A DNA stretch of 40,632 nt from a virus (taxonomy: Duplodnaviria; Heunggongvirae; Uroviricota; Caudoviricetes): the IMG/VR virus record IMGVR_UViG_2541047846_000008, positions 1-40,632 of that record. One strand, given 5' to 3'. The translations under genes were made by a program, and so were the position numbers. The notes under the pieces are model-generated. The model was given only the letters and a program-made list of their open reading frames with translations, had not been told where the DNA came from and did not search any database. This document shows, one piece after another, positions 1 through 40,632 of the stretch (position 1 is its first letter; each line of letters opens with the position of its first letter).

Positions 1-420
1 ATGACGGATTATCAGCCATACAGGAAAGGAACTGTGCTTGCCCCAACTGGGCCATGCAATCATCTTCATGTGATTTGTAATGATCCTGTTTATTACCCCG
101 TTAACGATTGTTATTGTGTTTTAGTTGTTAATATTTCTAGTATCAAGGATGGTGTCCCCCACGATCCGTCTTGCGTCTTGAATTCTGGTGATCATCGCTT
201 TATCAAGCATCCAAGTTATGTTGTTTACGCTGAAGCTATAATTTGGCGAGTGGATAACATGGTTAGAAAGCAGCGATCGGGTGAGATTTCTGTTCATGAT
301 GATATGCCAGAAGCTACATTCAATAGAATTCTGGACGGTTTTGATATCTCTGATGAAGTTACGCCAAAGAACCTTAAATTTAAAAATAAATATTGCGTAT
401 CATCTATTGATGATGAGTAA
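1..420 (+). CDS. Hypothetical protein, AT-rich cargo ORF (may extend or start upstream of window)
   Basis: 139-aa ORF from track; AT-rich codon usage unlike the phage core; no recognisable motif. Confidence 0.35.
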   Translation: MTDYQPYRKGTVLAPTGPCNHLHVICNDPVYYPVNDCYCVLVVNISSIKDGVPHDPSCVLNSGDHRFIKHPSYVVYAEAIIWRVDNMVRKQRSGEISVHDDMPEATFNRILDGFDISDEVTPKNLKFKNKYCVSSIDDE

Positions 421-459
421 ACAACAGGAATTGTTTCGGTATAACTTCAGGAGTTTTCT

Positions 460-633
460 ATGGAAGATCAAAAAGCAACCAAGCCACAGGTTAAGTTCGA
501 CACAATGAAAGCATTCGCAGGTATGGGTGCTGCTGTTGAAGTTCTGATGAAGGCTGCTCCTAATGCGTTCACTCACGCTACTGTCTCTGGTAAAGAGCAG
601 CAGGGTAAGCTTCGTCGTCGCAAAGCAGCATGA
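460..633 (+). CDS. Small hypothetical protein (57 aa) with basic C-terminus
   Basis: ATG at 460 preceded by AGGAG about 7 nt upstream; ends TGA at 631..633, directly before a strong terminator; not in ORF track (under 60 aa). Confidence 0.4.
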   Translation: MEDQKATKPQVKFDTMKAFAGMGAAVEVLMKAAPNAFTHATVSGKEQQGKLRRRKAA

Positions 634-652
634 TCATAGCTGGTGCTTTTTG

Positions 653-678
653 AAAACCCGCCTTTAGGCGGGTTTTTT
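653..678. terminator. Bidirectional Rho-independent terminator
   Basis: AAAA-CCCGCC-TTTA-GGCGGG-TTTTTT: 6-bp GC stem, tetraloop, flanking A-run and T-run; sits between convergent genes. Confidence 0.7.
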
Positions 679-680
679 AT

Positions 681-989
681 TTAGTGATGTTCTTTGCCCT
701 TCTGTTTGCTTGTTCTGACCTGTTCCCACTCGATACGTCCTTCTTCTCGTCTTTTGTCTATGTATTCCGCAAGATCCTGAATATTGATGCAACGTTTTGC
801 TTTTTGTGATGTGCCGATGCGATATGTTGGAACGGGCAACTTACAAGCGTTTGCTTTTGCTTCTGCCGTGGCTGGACTCATGCCAAAGTACTTTTGGCTA
901 ACTGCTGAGAGTTCAATGTTAGGGGTATTGAATTCAGCCATCAGTAAAAACAAGGTGTTCATAATTTTCTCCATCAAAACCGGCTGCAC
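681..989 (-). CDS. Excisionase-like small DNA-binding protein (PrtN/Xis-like); true start probably an internal Met
   Basis: Small basic protein at the distal end of the leftward early operon; composition and position typical of phage Xis-like regulators. Confidence 0.45.
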   Translation of the reverse strand: MQPVLMEKIMNTLFLLMAEFNTPNIELSAVSQKYFGMSPATAEAKANACKLPVPTYRIGTSQKAKRCINIQDLAEYIDKRREEGRIEWEQVRTSKQKGKEHH

Positions 990-998
990 CCGGGAAAA

Positions 999-1574
999 TC
1001 ATAATTCTGTGCTGGTGGCAGGAATTAATTTCTGCCAGATAGCGGAAACATATTTTGCCTGATGACGGGCATCAGCCAGGGCGTTGTGCCGTTCGCCATC
1101 GAAAGGCATGTCCATTTTGGGGTCGAATCCGATGGAACGCCCAAGCGTAACGATCGTGCGTACATCGTGGTCATTCCAGTATGCCCACGGGCAGATTTGT
1201 CCTGCTCGCTCATAAGCTCCACGTAAAATTACGTTGTCGAAGGTGGCTCCGTTACCCCAGACTTTTAAATATTTCGTATTGTCTGCGTGCCGGTTAATGA
1301 AATGATTTAGTTCTGAGAGAGCATCGCTGATCGACAAAGTATCATCAATACAGATTGCAGCTCGTGCTTCAGGGCTTTGTTTCAACCACCACAGGATGGT
1401 ATCGCCGTCAGGTGTAGCTCCTTGCCCCATAGCACTTTCCAGGCTAACAACCGTATAGAATTCTTGTCCGATGTCTCCGGTTTCTGGAGTGAAGAACACC
1501 GCGCCAATGGAAACGATCGGTGCATCCTTATTTTTCCCCATCGTCTCAAGGTCGATCATTAAGTTGTTCATCAC
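999..1574 (-). CDS. DnaQ-like 3'-5' exonuclease (DEDD family)
   Basis: N-terminal MIDLETMG motif (Exo I D-x-E) and conserved acidic and His residues downstream; ~190 aa. Confidence 0.6.
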   Translation of the reverse strand: MMNNLMIDLETMGKNKDAPIVSIGAVFFTPETGDIGQEFYTVVSLESAMGQGATPDGDTILWWLKQSPEARAAICIDDTLSISDALSELNHFINRHADNTKYLKVWGNGATFDNVILRGAYERAGQICPWAYWNDHDVRTIVTLGRSIGFDPKMDMPFDGERHNALADARHQAKYVSAIWQKLIPATSTEL

Positions 1575-34907: not shown

Positions 34908-35654
34908 ATGCATCGTATAGACACGAAAACCGCGCAGAAGGATAAGTTCGGCGCGGGTAAGAACGGTTTTACCCGTGGTAACCCCCAGACCGGCACACCT
35001 GCCACCGATCTGGATGATGACTACTTTGACATGTTGCAGGAAGAACTTTGTAGCGTGGTGGAGGCCTCCGGTGCCAGCCTGGAGAAGGCGCGGCACGACC
35101 AGTTGCTTACCGCGCTTCGTGCGCTGCTGTTAAGCCGCAAGAATCCGTTTGGCGATATCAAATCGGATGGCACGGTGGAAACGGCTCTCGAAAACCTTGG
35201 TTTGGGAGAAGGTGCTCCAGCTATTGGCGTTCCGTTCTTCTGGCCGTCCGCTGCAATGCCAAATACTGTAATCGACAGCTGGTCCAGTATGGTGTTTTTG
35301 AAGTTCAACGGCGCGAAATTCTCTGCCACTGATTATCCTGTGCTGGCGAAAGTGTTTCCTTCGCTGGTATTACCTGAAGCCCGCGGTGATTTCATTCGTA
35401 TCTGGGATGACGGGCGAGGTGCAGACGGTGGTCGCGAATTATTAAGCTGGCAGGAAGCTACAAACTTTTCTCAGTTTGCCGGGAATATAGTCGGAGGTGC
35501 GGGACACGCAATTAACTTTCATGATGGCATCGCCGGAAATCAGCCAGGATTTTCACGATTTAATTTCACCAGTAACTCTGTGGGTGATGGTGTGAATTTT
35601 GTTGCTGTCAGACCGCGAAATATTGCATTTAACTTTCTGGTGAGGGCTAAATAA
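34908..35654 (+). CDS. Tail fibre protein (constant N-terminus to about 35216, variable C-terminus inside invertible segment)
   Basis: 248 aa; crossover site inside the gene; an alternative C-terminal exon lies on the opposite strand. Confidence 0.8.
35187..35216. repeat. Left recombination (crossover) site of the invertible segment, inside the tail fibre gene
   Basis: ctcgaaaaccttggtttgggagaaggtgct; matches the inverted partner at 36925..36954 in 20 of 21 positions; resembles hix/gix-type sites. Confidence 0.5.
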
Positions 35655-36247
35655 TGAAACCTGTTTTTGATGAAAATGGGCTGGCCACAGTGCCGGGCGA
35701 TATGCGTTGTTTTTATTATGATGCTGAAACATCTGAGTATACGGGCTGGTCTGATGAATATATTAATACTGGCGTAAGTATGCCCGCCTGTTCCACTGGT
35801 ATTGACCCGGGCGAAAACATTCCGGGGAAAGTGGCAGTATTTACGGGTAAGGGATGGAGCCATGAAGAAGACTATCGCAATGAGACTGTTTACTCAACAG
35901 AAAATGGCGCAGCTGTTACAGTGGATTATATCGGTGCCATCAAAAACGGTTATGTCACGCTTTCACCGTTAACGCCATATGATAAATGGGATGGTGAGAA
36001 ATGGGTGACAGATACTGAGGCACAACACGGTGCCGCAGTAGAAGCAGCAGAAGCACAGCGCCAGTCACTGATTGATGCAGTAATGGCTTCCATTAGTCTG
36101 ATTCAGCTGAAATTACAGGCCGGACGGAAACTGACTCAGGCAGAAACAACCCGACTTAACACCGTGCTGGATTACATTGACGCGGTGACGGCAACAGATA
36201 CCAGCACCGCGCCGGATGTCATCTGGCCTGAACTGCCGGAGGCGTAG
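35654..36247 (+). CDS. Tail fibre assembly protein (Tfa), active orientation
   Basis: 197 aa; conserved C-terminal motif TSTAPD(V/I)xWPExP shared with the inverted copy. Confidence 0.8.
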
Positions 36248-36647
36248 GCCATTCAATATCGGGTGCTGTTGAAGTATCAACACGCATCAGCAGCACACGG
36301 TATTTCTTCCATTCGGTGAGAGTTGAAGTTTCTTCATCAGTTGCGATATCAGCATCAACAGCATCCTGACGCCAGGATATTTCACTGTCAGCTTTTTCCC
36401 GTAATTGGGATTTTTTAACTTCAGCAATAGCTATTAATTCCTTTTTGGTCGGCTGAGGAATATCTATCAGTGCTGGTTTTCCATTCAGTGTTCCAATCTG
36501 TTTTCCTGGTGGAATATCCATAAATAACTTTTTATGTTCTTCCTCACTGACTATTACACCATCATCAGGCCACAGACCTGATGCCTCAAATTTTTCTTTC
36601 TCCGATATGGGGAAAAAGCCATTTGATTTAGCGCTCCATACGTACAT
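36219..36647 (-). CDS. Tail fibre assembly protein (Tfa), alternative copy in inverted orientation
   Basis: 142 aa; C-terminal motif [15 protein letters not shown]; convergent with the other Tfa. Confidence 0.75.
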
Positions 36648-36648
36648 A

Positions 36649-36915
36649 TCAATACCCCACCGCTATAATGTCCACATTAAATCCCCCGGGACCTGCCTGC
36701 CAGATGCTGGCCCCTGTTAATGATTTTGTTTGATGAACAACCGCCACATTTGCTGGTGATTGTGTTTCAGTTGTTACAGTACCGATATCATTCCAGTTAA
36801 TTGAGATGGAATAGTTCGTTGTTGTAAACGACCGGGGGAAAGTTATGTGTCTTGCATTGGTGCCAATAGGAAATCCAAGATAAACACGCTGAATTATCAT
36901 TCCTCCAGGTAACAT
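36649..36915 (-). CDS. Alternative tail fibre C-terminal segment (promoterless; frame stays open upstream to the crossover site)
   Basis: Upstream in-frame sequence reads ..[12 protein letters not shown].., matching ..ENLGLGEGA.. of the expressed fibre. Confidence 0.6.
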
Positions 36916-36924
36916 AACCCAGTT

Positions 36925-36954
36925 AGCACCTTCTCCAAAACCAACCTTTCAAAT
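36925..36954. repeat. Right recombination (crossover) site of the invertible segment
   Basis: agcaccttctccaaaaccaacctttcaaat, inverted relative to the site at 35187..35216. Confidence 0.5.
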
Positions 36955-37015
36955 ATTTTTCTGAATCAGGTGATATTTCGCCTCTTCTCCTGTTTTTACA
37001 ACAGGAGAAGCACTC

Positions 37016-37579
37016 ATGATTTACGGGTATGTTCGTGTATCAACAAATCATCAGGATACAGAGTTGCAACGTCTTGCACTTGAGTCAGCTGGCTGTGAGC
37101 GAATTTATGAAGAATATGCCAGTGGCAGAACAGCTAATCGCCCTGTGTTAAAGGAATTAATTACGGTGATGAAAAGTGGAGATGAGTTGATTGTCTGGAA
37201 GTTAGATCGGATAGGGAGAAATGTGCTGCATGCGCTATTGATGTTTCAAAATCTGCACGAAAAAGGTGTTAATTTTCGGAGTATTACAGATGGCGTAGAC
37301 CTGAAAACAGCAAGTGGTCGCTATAATTTCCGTAATATTCTTTCTGCTGCGCAGTATGAATCTGATTTGAATAGCGAGCGAACTTTAGCTGGTTTGGCTA
37401 TTGCCAGATCCAAAGGCCGGATTGGTGGGCGTAGACCGAAGTTTAGCGACGAGCAGTGGCAACAGATGGGAGCGCTCATAGCGGCAGGGAAATCACGGCG
37501 TTATGTTGCACGTATCTATAACGTTGGGCTATCAACCCTATATAAACGATTTCCTGTTACTGGCATTCAAACGAAATAA
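37016..37579 (+). CDS. pin: Serine DNA invertase (Pin/Gin/Hin family)
   Basis: N-terminal YVRVSTxxQ catalytic Ser motif and C-terminal HTH; 187 aa; adjacent to inverted crossover sites. Confidence 0.9.
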   Translation: MIYGYVRVSTNHQDTELQRLALESAGCERIYEEYASGRTANRPVLKELITVMKSGDELIVWKLDRIGRNVLHALLMFQNLHEKGVNFRSITDGVDLKTASGRYNFRNILSAAQYESDLNSERTLAGLAIARSKGRIGGRRPKFSDEQWQQMGALIAAGKSRRYVARIYNVGLSTLYKRFPVTGIQTK

Positions 37580-37722: not shown

Positions 37723-37971
37723 TTAGTGAACAAACCACTCGTCAGCAGATTCCCAGGTATCTTTCAGAGTCTCCTGAACAAAAGTTTTTGCAGAATCCTT
37801 ATCTGCGGTGCGTGTAACAGAAAGGCCATCGTTGCTGGTGGCTTTTACGATCACCTCTACATCGTCATAACGTTTACTGATGCGTCGGGTTAATTCTTCC
37901 TTTAACGCATCCACAGCACCGGTTGGCATTTTAGTCATTTTTTCTTTGGCTATGCAGATTTCAATACGCAT
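37723..37971 (-). CDS. dinI: DinI-like protein (predicted RecA/SOS modulator)
   Basis: 82 aa; MRIEI.IAK and C-terminal TWESADEWF motifs as in DinI; two LexA boxes upstream. Confidence 0.8.
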
Positions 37972-37986
37972 AAAAGTCCCTCTATA

Positions 37987-38030
37987 CTGTGTTTGTATAC
38001 AGTATTATTTTTAACTGTATAGATAAACAG
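37987..38030. promoter_or_regulatory. Two tandem LexA (SOS) boxes upstream of the dinI-like gene
   Basis: taCTGTgtttgtatACAGta (37987..38002) and aaCTGTatagataaACAGtg (38015..38030); both CTGT-N8-ACAG. Confidence 0.65.
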
Positions 38031-38032
38031 TG

Positions 38033-39130
38033 TCAAGAGGCCTTATTTCTGCTCCTTTGGAGCTCTTCAAAACGATTATGTAAAGATTTCGGATACAGTT
38101 CGGTATATACCTGCCATAGCACGTTTAATGAACGATGCCCTGTAACCTGGGCGACTTCCTCAATACTAAAACCAGCCTCAAATAAGCGACTTGCCCCTTC
38201 TCTACGCAAATCATGGTATCGCAGATCTTTAATACCTAATTTGCTTCTTACCCTCTGGAATCCCGCAGTAACAGAAGTGCTGTTATATGGAAAAATGAAT
38301 TCTGATTTTTTGGGTTGTCGTTGGACGATATCCCAGGCTTCCCCAAGCAAGGCTACTTTCATATGGTTGCCTTCCTTTTTACGTGGATCTTTCCTGTCTC
38401 TTACGAGTATGGATTTTTGTTCCTGATCGAGATCCTCCCATCGTAATCGGCATACTTCACCGATTCGCATACATGACCACACAGAAAATTTGAGGATATC
38501 AACGAACGGAATTTTTGAGCATTTATGTGTAGATCGTTGTTGAAGACCTTCAATGAGCATGTCCAGTTCATCAGATGCCGGTCTACGATTACGACGATTT
38601 GATTTACCAATTAAACCAAGTTTAAGTAGATATGGACGAGCGGCTTTTGCTGGGTTTGATGTGTAATTAATTCCATATACAGGTTTGGCAGCATCCAGAA
38701 CACTGCCAAGATAACTAACATCGTGGCTAACTGTAGCTGGACCTGCACCAGCGTTGTTTCTTAGCCTGCAATGTTCAATTACGTCATTTTCTGTCAGTTC
38801 AGATAGTTTGAGCGCGGAGACGTCACTATCCATAAGCAGTTCCAGCACATATCTTTTAGTACGGCCTGCTTTACCTCCGGCATTTGGGTCATTTAAATAT
38901 TTGTGTAGTAAGTCACGGACTGTAAGTCCGTCAACTGCATTTGATGATGGAATGCCATATAGATCTAATTCCATCACTTTCTGTGTGCCCCATGTTTTGG
39001 CATGAGCATGTTTAGGGAATGTTTTACTTTCCCTGTAAGTGATAACACCTTTTTCTTTGATAATCACATTACAGCGATAGCGTGGTGTGCCATCGGATTT
39101 TAGTCGTTTCTCTATGTTATAGTATGCCAT
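38033..39130 (-). CDS. int: Tyrosine integrase (DusA-targeting type)
   Basis: 365 aa; C-terminal catalytic region with RxxR ... HDLRR ... Y pattern; adjacent to dusA. Confidence 0.9.
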   Translation of the reverse strand: MAYYNIEKRLKSDGTPRYRCNVIIKEKGVITYRESKTFPKHAHAKTWGTQKVMELDLYGIPSSNAVDGLTVRDLLHKYLNDPNAGGKAGRTKRYVLELLMDSDVSALKLSELTENDVIEHCRLRNNAGAGPATVSHDVSYLGSVLDAAKPVYGINYTSNPAKAARPYLLKLGLIGKSNRRNRRPASDELDMLIEGLQQRSTHKCSKIPFVDILKFSVWSCMRIGEVCRLRWEDLDQEQKSILVRDRKDPRKKEGNHMKVALLGEAWDIVQRQPKKSEFIFPYNSTSVTAGFQRVRSKLGIKDLRYHDLRREGASRLFEAGFSIEEVAQVTGHRSLNVLWQVYTELYPKSLHNRFEELQRSRNKAS

Positions 39131-39218
39131 TACACGACCTCGTTATTTCGGGTTCCCATAAAACGTGGGAACCTGTGCGGGAACCTAACGCGAGAAAAAT
39201 AGCCTGAAATGTTCAAAA

Positions 39219-40256
39219 ATGCACGATAATCATGAAGCACAAAAAATTAATCAAACCAGCGTGATGCCTGAAAAAACTGGTGTTTACTGGAATTCTCGGT
39301 TTAGCATTGCTCCTATGCTTGACTGGACGGACAGACATTGCCGTTATTTCCTGCGTCTGCTTTCCCGCAATACGTTGCTGTATACCGAAATGGTGACCAC
39401 AGGGGCGATTATTCACGGTAAAGGTGATTACCTGGCGTACAGTGAAGAAGAACATCCGGTAGCGTTGCAACTCGGGGGTAGCGATCCGGCGGCGCTGGCA
39501 CAGTGTGCGAAGCTGGCAGAAGCGCGCGGATATGATGAGATCAACCTGAATGTCGGCTGCCCGTCTGACCGGGTGCAGAACGGCATGTTTGGTGCGTGTC
39601 TGATGGGTAATGCGCAGCTGGTTGCCGACTGCGTGAAAGCGATGCGCGATGTGGTGTCGATTCCGGTGACGGTGAAAACGCGTATTGGCATCGATGATCA
39701 GGACAGCTATGAATTTCTCTGCGATTTCATCAACACCGTTTCCGGCAAAGGTGAGTGTGAGATGTTCATCATCCACGCACGTAAAGCCTGGCTTTCTGGG
39801 TTAAGTCCGAAAGAAAACCGTGAGATCCCGCCGCTCGATTATCCGCGTGTGTATCAACTGAAGCGTGACTTTCCGCATCTGACGATGTCGATTAACGGTG
39901 GTATCAAGTCGCTGGAAGAAGCTAAAGCGCATTTGCAACATATGGATGGCGTGATGGTCGGGCGCGAGGCGTATCAGAATCCGGGGATTCTGGCGGCGGT
40001 AGACCGAGAGATTTTTGGTTCCTCGGATACCGATGCCGATCCGGTGGCGGTAGTGCGCGCCATGTATCCGTACATTGAGCGTGAACTCAGCCAGGGTACG
40101 TATCTCGGCCATATTACCCGGCATATGCTGGGCTTGTTCCAGGGTATTCCTGGCGCGCGGCAGTGGCGGCGTTATTTAAGTGAAAATGCCCATAAAGCGG
40201 GTGCAGACATTAATGTGCTGGAACACGCGCTCAAACTGGTGGCGGATAAGCGTTAA
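39219..40256 (+). CDS. dusA: tRNA-dihydrouridine synthase A
   Basis: 345 aa; conserved Dus motifs; followed by pspG as in E. coli. Confidence 0.9.
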
Positions 40257-40389
40257 CTTTTCACCAAAAAGTAGTCAAATTCACCACGCCCTGCGCACCG
40301 TCGCGGGGTGTTTTGCTGTTAAATCAACAGATTATTTTTGGCATGATTCTTGTAATGCCAGCAAGAGATTTCATATTTGGGAGAGCATC

Positions 40390-40632
40390 ATGCTGGAACT
40401 ACTTTTTGTAATTGGCTTTTTTGTCATGCTGATGGTCACCGGTGTTTCGTTGCTGGGTATTATCGCCGCGCTGATTGTGGCGACGGCCTTTATGTTCCTC
40501 GGCGGTATGCTGGCATTGATGATTAAGTTGCTGCCGTGGCTGCTGTTGGCGGTTGCGGTGGTGTGGGTGATCAGGGCAATTAAAGCACCAAAAGTGCCGA
40601 AATATCAGCGTTATGACCGCTGGCGTTACTAA
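40390..40632 (+). CDS. pspG: Phage shock protein G
   Basis: 80-aa highly hydrophobic protein ending KVPKYQRYDRWRY; internal ATG of track ORF 40180..40632. Confidence 0.8.
   Translation: MLELLFVIGFFVMLMVTGVSLLGIIAALIVATAFMFLGGMLALMIKLLPWLLLAVAVVWVIRAIKAPKVPKYQRYDRWRY

Follow-up and report, generated by a model that had tools for sequence, protein, structure and literature searches.

A prophage that ends beside dusA raises two questions, namely which DNA encodes the beginning of that gene and what the short repeats between it and the integrase gene are for. We addressed both in IMG/VR record IMGVR_UViG_2541047846_000008, of which all 40,632 nucleotides were analysed (the window). Sequence comparison shows that the window contains the right-hand junction (attR) of a temperate, SfV-like E. 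coli phage inserted in the 5' end of dusA. It is highly probable, in our assessment, that the full model holds, in which a dusA-specific integrase (Int) acts at this attR, dusA is chimeric, three repeats (P1–P3) serve as arm-type sites for Int and excision depends on the directionality factor RdfN. The replacement of the dusA 5' end by a prophage is real and had been correctly interpreted in the initial annotation, but it is already published and ordinary, because such behaviour is well documented for dusA-specific integrases. The putative arm-type repeats of these integrases apparently have not been described before.

Prophage DNA occupies positions 1–39322, its left end being cut off by the window edge, and has a structural module of SfV type and an early region of lambdoid type, with a contractile tail resembling that of Mu and a tail-fibre segment that can invert. 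It is 97–98% identical to an annotated dusA prophage of NZ_OZ038590, and its structural and tail genes are 97–98% identical to those of SfV, SfII, SfI and Escherichia phage SKA5, the last of which also has the integrase in common with it; for the structural genes, identity to SKA5 and SfV is 98%. SfV-type phages differ from it in what is presumably another integrase, a tRNA attachment site and O-antigen modification genes adjoining int. In strain CT29, the prophage left end is 100% identical to window positions 1–1500, while the integrase differs by 6 residues and the tail-fibre region is different. At the right junction (window 38900–39600), the best match among the complete E. coli genomes in the collection was 99.6%.

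The integrase gene (38033–39130, minus strand) encodes a tyrosine integrase of 365 amino acids (Pfam Phage_integrase PF00589, E 1e-20). An AF2 model predicts an N-terminal beta-beta-beta-alpha domain (residues 1–58) followed by core-binding and catalytic domains, with a fold that matches lambda Int, Tn1549 Int and Cre; residues R222, H306, R309, H332 and Y342 are invariant in our alignment (A4). With 99.2% identity to the Int of phage 1720a-02, the protein is assigned by homology to the published dusA-specific class. The genes int and dusA diverge across an 88-bp gap (39131–39218), so that the distance of about 90 bp given in the initial annotation was right, but it is the int start codon (39130) and not the end of the gene that faces dusA. 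In 55 of the 80 homologous loci, which belong to many genera of Gammaproteobacteria, dusA likewise diverges from int at a distance of about 88 bp.

The boundaries of the crossover core were set by comparison with prophage-free E. coli, with lysogens in which both junctions are present and with the intact attP of the virion genomes mEp460, YeP1 and EKP1, and these comparisons bear out integration at the dusA 5' end. The window differs from prophage-free alleles upstream of TTGCxCCxATGCT and is identical to them downstream. The sole stretch common to attL, attR, attB and attP is ATGCTTGA (39315–39322, plus strand), which covers codons Met33-Leu34-Asp35 of the annotated dusA ORF and lies within a semiconserved 22-bp att region (39307–39328). 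The attachment core is thus inside the 5' end of dusA, as had been expected; the span originally proposed for the locus (38033–39300) stopped 15 bp before the core. The attR repeat at 39307–39328 has its attL counterpart in the related lysogens L003 and L004, where a displaced native dusA 5' fragment and the core are found at the far (left) junction. In NZ_OZ038590, the order at attL is native dusA 5' end, ATGCTTGA and TAGGATGTACCG, and in strain CT29 a dusA 5' pseudogene is annotated at attL. No second core copy or dusA 5' fragment was detected in the window at up to 3 mismatches, ATGCTTGA being single there, and a general direct-repeat scan of the window gave nothing relevant to the att core. 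The predicted duplication of the core at the left junction is accordingly found in close-relative lysogens but not within the window. Judged from the position of the attL core in CT29, attL lies about 830 bp beyond the left edge; we infer the attL of the window prophage from close relatives because its left junction is outside the window and no complete genome exceeds 99.6% at the right junction. The left half of the window attR and the right half of attL are contiguous as attP in the mEp460 virion genome, and attP is also contiguous in the virion genomes of YeP1, EKP1 and C5a. Sequence comparison thus establishes the junction with its core, the chimeric dusA gene and attP.

The dusA ORF (39219–40256, plus strand) is intact and encodes 345 amino acids, with the Pfam Dus domain at residues 30–340. 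Its first 96 nt (39219–39314) belong to the phage and differ from both prophage-free alleles. The remainder (39323–40256) is host-derived and matches B2-like E. coli; over 39323–40632 (1310 nt, including the downstream pspG region) the window is 99.5% identical to prophage-free B2-like E. coli. An estimate that the first ~20 codons are phage-derived was right as to their origin and not as to their number. The annotated ORF has 32 such codons, a figure that falls to 17 should translation begin at the ATG at 39264, which aligns with the native start codon. The exchange of the first dusA codons for the element's own version, as is typical of this integrase class, can be seen in the allele, attL and attP alignments alike. 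Beside int, the phage carries a segment that mimics the dusA 5' end, necessarily with a promoter, and recombination within ATGCTTGA joined phage DNA (39219–39314), the core and host DNA (from 39323). The gene was rebuilt as an in-frame chimera because the phage brings its own dusA 5' end. The native 5' end and its promoter would be left at attL, about 40 kb away and beyond the window, and the attB restored after excision is expected to have the native MPAESHTVYPAYRFSIAP dusA 5' end.

All DNA to the left of the core is phage DNA, and any dusA promoter here must therefore be phage-supplied. A scan of 38900–39500 called neither a sigma-70 consensus promoter nor a terminator. Two blocks, GAGAAAAATA and AAAATGCACGATAAT (39192–39230), are shared by enterobacterial P arms, among them those of Kosakonia, Izhakiella, Xenorhabdus, Morganella and Proteus. 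They are candidates for a promoter or for a site of a bending protein, either of which would serve the divergent transcription of int and dusA. An IHF site in the conserved block was considered and dropped, the consensus matches being poor. By eye, GATAAT (39225–39230) and an opposite-strand TATTTT are conserved −10-like hexamers, neither with a convincing −35.

The gap also holds the repeats. The perfect inverted repeat reported earlier was confirmed as GGTTCCCA (P1, 39151–39158, minus strand), seven nucleotides and TGGGAACC (P2, 39166–39173, plus strand), P1 being the inverted copy of P2; likewise, the further GGGAACC copy is CGGGAACC (P3, 39178–39185, plus strand), 12 bp from P2 start-to-start. 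A perfect 8-bp inverted repeat is by itself not rare: with a loop of 3–10 nt, 23 overlapping matches (about 14 loci) occur in the window versus about 5 in Markov simulations. An inverted repeat with a third copy within 20 bp occurs twice, against a simulated mean of 0.23. YGGGARCC has 8 copies on both strands of the 40.6 kb, three of which fall within 35 bp at 39151–39185. The main support for the repeats is comparative and comes from a three-copy architecture that recurs at a fixed distance from the int start in many genera.

This architecture keeps the same distance from the int ATG in every lineage, but the motif itself varies between lineages (GGGAACC, GGGGTGCT, GGTGTAC, GGTGTCC, GGGATAC and others). 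P2 keeps an offset of about 34–37 nt from the int ATG across loci, the P2/P3 direct-repeat pair retains its architecture with lineage-specific sequence, and an equivalent of the inverted copy P1 is present in many homologous loci. In four of four intact attP sites, the lineage's own motif recurs on the P' arm, as two direct copies in mEp460/CT29, YeP1 and EKP1, where they are positioned +50 and +61 relative to the core, and as an inverted copy in C5a; for the window prophage, the expected P' arm is TGGGAGCC-TAT-TGGGAACC at +50/+61. The class of motif tracks residues 28–35 of the Int N-domain (VITYRES, KYIYREN, KHLHRET, KRIYNES, AIVYQES), in counts that are not independent since the loci are phylogenetically related. 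The distant lineage L061 pairs HRET with GGTGTAC, and Int homologues located away from dusA (L031–L033) keep the same pairing of motif and N-domain. These patterns make it most likely that P1–P3 are putative lambda-style arm-type sites of the integrase. They would be bound by the small N-terminal beta-sheet domain of Int together with two further copies on the other attP arm, the five arm sites forming a lambda-like intasome of about 235 bp. Since P1–P3 separate the int start codon from whatever precedes it, Int bound there would probably also reduce transcription of its own gene.

Other readings of the locus were weighed against the same evidence. The start of dusA in the window might be a native allelic variant, with the element boundary outside the gene and no 5' replacement, and 79% of complete E. 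coli genomes do have a comparable 'MH.N...' 5' allele with no integrase beside it. Yet in the virion genome of mEp460, phage DNA directly flanks 39131–39322, with the dusA 5' segment, at either end, and the B2-like host flank (99.5%) adjoins a 5' end quite different from the native B2-like one, which sits instead at attL of a related lysogen. The attP, attL and attB comparisons refute this reading, to which we give almost no probability. Alternatively, the inverted repeat could form an RNA hairpin that attenuates or terminates transcription or affects transcript stability, either within the int leader or upstream of dusA, instead of binding a protein. The plus-strand RNA fold of −21.3 kcal/mol (z = −2.56) and a matching change in both halves at locus L006 (GGTCCCCA...TGGGGACC) would fit such a structure, but there is no T-run or terminator call, and the minus strand, which is the int-sense strand, folds ordinarily (z = −0.99). 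Moreover, many lineages (e.g. L031, L037, L042) have two perfect direct copies beside a degenerate inverted one, and the motif is found again on the P' arm, at a distance of more than 180 bp. A hairpin role is very improbable.

A further reading is that the repeats bind not Int but the PrtN-like RdfN or another phage regulator, as an operator or directionality-factor site beside int. RdfN is the other gene common to dusA-specific elements (PMC8409611), and it also differs between lineages with different motifs. The repeats lie directly upstream of int. Tandem direct repeats with a spacing of 11–12 bp are typical of excisionase sites such as those of lambda Xis, which counts in favour of RdfN. 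Covariation alone is compatible with RdfN as the reader of the repeats because RdfN diverges between lineages too, and its sequence comparison was uninformative as a discriminator, RdfN differing between motif classes. However, the motif is present on both attP arms at kept distances; sites on both arms are a hallmark of Int arm sites, whereas directionality-factor sites are normally confined to one arm. The motif class also correlates with the Int N-domain beta-strand residues, including in L061, and is retained with its N-domain partner by the Int homologues that have no dusA neighbour. We consider a regulator-binding role unlikely and keep Int as the preferred reader of P1–P3.

The expected RdfN is encoded by a PrtN-family gene (681–989, minus strand; Pfam PF11112, E 4e-23) at the end of the prophage early-left operon. 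Once the phage genome is circular, this gene and int are on opposite sides of attP. RdfN homologues adjoin attP in mEp460, YeP1 and EKP1. By analogy, the product is expected to be the recombination directionality factor of this dusA-specific element, and excision would need this protein from the other prophage end. RdfN is required for excision in related elements, which also supply a promoter and reading frame to dusA (PMC8409611).

Integration and excision, the restoration of promoter and frame and the need for RdfN have been shown experimentally by others in near-identical or related elements. Phage 1720a-02 (Phi-stx2dact) integrates in dusA of C. rodentium and E. coli (Balasubramanian et al., 2019; PMC6328086), where it is inserted 100 bp into the gene, with an in-frame PhidusA' fusion, a core of 7 bases and circular attP reads. 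Together with the contiguous attP of virion genomes, these reads give indirect support for excision of the window element as a circle that would restore native dusA. Phage 1720a-02 resembles the window prophage in its 99.2% identical Int, a phage dusA 5' ORF, a core of 7–8 bases and an int gene beside the dusA-rebuilding junction. Only the integration module is common to the two, since 1720a-02 is a lambdoid Stx2-converting phage whereas the window prophage has an SfV-like head and a contractile tail and no stx. The DusA-associated integrase family was defined by Farrugia et al. (2015; PMC4482086); its elements likewise have a tyrosine integrase divergent from a dusA 5' end that is replaced, and semiconserved attL/attR repeats of about 21 bp in a conserved part of dusA. 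Nothing essential differs from the window, although arm-type repeats are absent from that description. In IMEVchUSA3 and other Vibrio dusA-specific elements, int and a PrtN-like rdfN flank attP (Durand et al., 2021; PMC8409611), but elements of this type are plasmid-mobilised islands under AcaCD control, unlike the full tailed prophage described here. Lambda offers the structural parallel of a three-domain Int, of arm sites that are repeated on both arms and differ from the core (putative in the present case), of an attP of about 235 bp and of a separate excisionase. Full-length lambda Int aligns over the whole length of the window Int and is among its best structural matches, despite 17% sequence identity. 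The attP arms deduced for the window (one inverted and two direct copies on P, two direct on P') are unlike those of lambda in motif and arrangement, and so is the target, a protein-coding 5' end that is rebuilt.

The K-12-type dusA 5' end and its upstream region, which 79% of complete E. coli genomes carry together with yjbL/yjbM, have the look of a fossil left by an ancient dusA-specific element. The sequence upstream of K-12 dusA shows significant similarity to the window from about 39196 to the core only, and a remnant of an integrase or its arm sites upstream of K-12 dusA was rejected on this ground. Neither such a fossil nor arm-type repeats or a heterobivalent reading of dusA-specific Int was found in the searched literature. 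On balance, we favour the combined proposition that dusA-specific integrases are lambda-style heterobivalent enzymes with five arm sites of fixed geometry, three beside the int ATG and two at +50/+61, whose 7–8 bp motif has diversified with the N-terminal beta-strand residues in a readable specificity code, and that the K-12-type dusA 5' end is an element fossil.

For annotation, the right prophage boundary is now fixed to 8 bp and the integration module is identified (int, attR with its putative arm sites, and rdfN). Such a precise att map aids prophage typing and excision assays because Stx-converting phages are among the carriers of this integrase. If the fossil reading is true, most E. coli would express dusA as a chimera whose upstream sequence and start region come from a mobile element. 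The common allele appears to be element-derived, which bears on the choice of start codon and promoter in DusA studies. For the integrase family, arm sites of fixed geometry and variable sequence, paired with a variable N-domain, may offer a natural system in which to study and re-engineer arm specificity.

The tyrosine integrase gene of the prophage (38033-39130, minus strand; 365 aa; Pfam Phage_integrase, E 1e-20) and dusA (39219-40256, plus strand; 345 aa; Pfam Dus, E 8e-105, domain from residue 30), followed by pspG, are divergent and separated by 88 bp up to the annotated dusA ATG. The spacing of about 90 bp in the initial annotation is therefore right, except that the start codon of int (39130), and not its end, faces dusA. 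Prophage-free E. coli carries one of two dusA 5' alleles: a B2-like allele, with zur directly upstream and a DusA of 331 aa, and a K-12-like allele, in which yjbL/yjbM (DUF2713) separate zur from dusA and DusA has 345 aa. Aligned with both, the window is divergent upstream of TTGCxCCxATGCT and matches downstream, and the 1310 nt from 39323 on are 99.5% identical to a B2-like strain and 96.9% to a K-12-like strain. In the related lysogen NZ_OZ038590, attL holds the native 5' end, ...CCCCG-ATGCTTGA-TAGGATGTACCG..., and attR reads ...GCTCCT-ATGCTTGA-CTGGACGG...; strain CT29, whose left end is identical to window 1-1500, keeps a 105-nt dusA 5' pseudogene at attL, followed by phage sequence as in the attL of that lysogen. 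Allele alignments and junctions together therefore place the exchange within ATGCTTGA (39315-39322), codons 33-35 (Met-Leu-Asp) of the annotated dusA ORF and thus inside the dusA 5' end, as had been proposed.

The phage-supplied part of dusA spans nt 39219-39314 and amounts to 32 annotated codons rather than the roughly 20 first suggested; an in-frame ATG at 39264 aligns with the native start (MPAESHTVYPAYRFSIAP), and if this is the real start, the phage-derived codons number 17. The RFSIAPMLD segment, which Farrugia et al. (2015; PMC4482086) describe as the TIM barrel's first beta-strand, is intact in the chimeric DusA. No second copy of the core was found in the window, where it occurs once; comparison with CT29 puts the left junction about 830 bp beyond position 1, and the duplicate predicted there is present in the attL of related lysogens. 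The phage mEp460, whose integrase is 97.5% identical, has in its virion genome, in order, the int start, three repeats, a dusA 5' imitation, ATGCTCGA, TAGGATGTACCG... and TGGGAGCC-TAT-TGGGAACC, unbroken to the left-end cargo gene; this attP is the exact join of the left half of the window attR with the right half of attL. The initial observation is thus confirmed and its interpretation supported, with these corrections.

The phenomenon is already known, near-identical integrase included. DusA-associated integrases were defined as divergent from the dusA 5' end, which the element replaces, with flanking semiconserved attL/attR repeats of about 21 bp and excision demonstrated by PCR (Farrugia et al., 2015; PMC4482086). 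Phage 1720a-02, whose integrase is 99.2% identical to that of the window, integrates 100 bp into dusA, carries an in-frame 'PhidusA' ORF and a seven-base core, and yields 0.44% attP reads in vivo (Balasubramanian et al., 2019; PMC6328086). The PrtN-like excisionase RdfN is located across attP from int (Durand et al.; PMC8409611); its gene lies here at 681-989 (minus strand; PF11112, E 4e-23), and homologues adjoin attP in mEp460 and phages YeP1 and EKP1. When one genome per species was scanned, dusA lay about 88 bp upstream and divergent in 55 of the 80 best integrase homologues, from Escherichia to Vibrio, Shewanella, Colwellia and Aeromonas, and the remaining 25 or so occupied other target sites. 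The int-dusA junction occurs in 741 of 5426 complete E. coli genomes.

Most of the window matches, at 97-98% identity, the annotated prophage of about 40 kb between zur and dusA in NZ_OZ038590, which encodes terminase, portal, HK97-type capsid, sheath/tube/baseplate, lysis genes, Q, repressor, an early-left operon, a DinI-like gene and integrase; phages SKA5 and SfV are 98% identical in the structural half. The stretch that separates the integrase stop codon from the DinI-like gene start (gene at 37723-37971, minus strand) contains two LexA-box-like palindromes, TACTGTGTTTGTATACAGTA (37985-38004) and AACTGTATAGATAAACAGTG (38013-38032), each CTGT-N8-ACAG, which suggest SOS control of this dinI homologue. 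An invertible tail-fibre segment (35654-37579) comprises a Gin/Pin-type serine invertase (37016-37579; Resolvase + HTH_7), frameshifted in related prophages, and opposed tail-fibre-assembly and fibre-tip ORFs (35654-36247, plus; 36219-36647 and 36649-36915, minus). Position 1 is the exact ATG of a 139-aa ORF (1-420) with no Pfam match; in CT29 a Panacea-domain (SocA-like antitoxin) gene stands upstream of it, just outside the window (L004:2932-3504), and the two probably form a toxin-antitoxin moron between attL and rdfN, a position where the cargo gene differs in related prophages (NZ_OZ038590, mEp460). A strong GC-rich hairpin flanked by runs of A and T (653-680; AAAACCCGCCTTTAGGCGGGTTTTTT) separates rdfN from a convergent small ORF (460-633, plus); it probably terminates transcription in both directions and so closes the early-left operon.

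The perfect inverted repeat and further copy noted initially in the int-dusA gap are present as P1 (GGTTCCCA, 39151-39158, inverted), P2 (TGGGAACC, 39166-39173, N7 after P1) and P3 (CGGGAACC, 39178-39185). Perfect 8-bp inverted repeats with a short loop are not unusual by themselves (the window has about 14 loci versus about 5 expected), but with a nearby third copy there are 2 versus 0.23 expected, and 3 of the 8 occurrences of YGGGARCC in 40.6 kb sit inside these 35 bp. Within ~60 bp upstream of int, every dusA-adjacent locus carries a directly repeated motif of 8-10 bp, its two copies spaced 11-12 bp apart, and an inverted copy usually comes before them. The pair stands at a nearly constant distance from the int ATG, but the motif sequence varies with lineage. 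The motif class follows integrase residues 28-35 (lineages bearing each motif in parentheses): VITYRES with GGGAACC (Escherichia, Kosakonia, Phytobacter, Pluralibacter), KYIYREN with GGGGTGCT (Izhakiella, Mixta, Shimwellia, Xenorhabdus, Morganella, Serratia, YeP1), KHLHRET with GGTGTAC (several Enterobacterales, EKP1), KRIYNES with GGTGTCC (Rosenbergiella, Proteus, Erwinia dacicola) and AIVYQES with GGGATAC (Oceanimonas, Zobellella); marine genera have GGGGCAC, GGGGTAC and others, and GGTGTAC recurs with a distant Thalassotalea integrase reading ...HRET. In all four intact attP sites examined, the lineage's own motif is also on the other arm: at +50 and +61 from the core, mEp460/CT29 have direct copies TGGGAGCC and TGGGAACC, YeP1 has GGGGTGCT twice, also direct, and EKP1 has direct GGTGTACT and TGGTGTACC, while in Pseudoalteromonas phage C5a the copy is inverted. 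The distance from third repeat to core is conserved at 136-137 bp.

Residues 1-58 of the integrase are predicted by AlphaFold to form a three-stranded sheet plus helix (pLDDT about 90), the topology that lambda and Tn916 integrases show in their arm-binding domains; the isolated domain had no significant Foldseek match, and full-length lambda Int aligns along the entire window integrase. RdfN, which likewise diverges between motif classes, could instead read the repeats, but their presence on both attP arms and the correlation of motif with the Int N-domain favour Int. That the inverted repeat works as an RNA hairpin is unlikely, given the missing T-run, the unremarkable fold of the int-sense strand (z = -0.99), the degenerate inverted copy in many lineages with a perfect direct pair, and the recurrence of the motif on the other arm. 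We infer that P1-P3 and the other-arm copies P'1-P'2 are the arm-type sites at which the integrase would bind a lambda-like attP about 235 bp long; no prior description at dusA elements was found in a literature search ('arm-type' + dusA) or in Durand et al. (PMC8409611).

Any possible int promoter would have to lie beyond P1-P3 as seen from the int ATG, so that Int, by analogy with other integrases, probably represses its own gene through these putative sites. A promoter scan of the int-dusA region (38900-39500) gave no match; the blocks GAGAAAAATA and AAAATGCACGATAAT (39192-39230), conserved among enterobacterial P arms, are the probable location of the divergent promoters or of a site for a bending protein. 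Should GATAAT (39225-39230) serve as the -10 element of dusA, the transcript would begin downstream of the annotated ATG at 39219, leaving the ATG at 39264 as the start. About 25 of the 80 closest homologues lie away from dusA and still have paired direct repeats upstream of int, mostly GGGGTGCT (loci L027, L031-L033, L036-L044, L063, L064, L068 and L080), with the KYIYREN pairing kept; this suggests that the dusA-type integrase scaffold, along with its arm sites, has been redirected to other attachment sites.

The K-12-type dusA 5' end, together with upstream yjbL/yjbM (DUF2713), appears to be left over from an old dusA-specific element. Between K-12-like and B2-like strains (L001:906-2599 versus L002:2368-2509, corresponding to window 39196-39322), homology is lost 68 bp after zur and returns exactly at the att core, with about 1.7 kb including yjbL/yjbM between the K-12-like breakpoints. 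The ~125 bp before the K-12 core are 82-85% identical to the P arm of the window phage and encode an element-type N-terminus, MHGNSEMQKINQTS...; DusA N-termini of Salmonella, Raoultella and three further fragments resemble the B2-like allele, and 'MHEN/MHDN...' N-termini occur in Shigella, Proteus and Xenorhabdus. Each complete E. coli genome has exactly one allele (4303 K-12-like and 1123 B2-like, 5426 in all). No paper linking yjbM and dusA as an element relic was found, and we regard this apparent K-12 fossil and the putative arm-site architecture as modest new observations.
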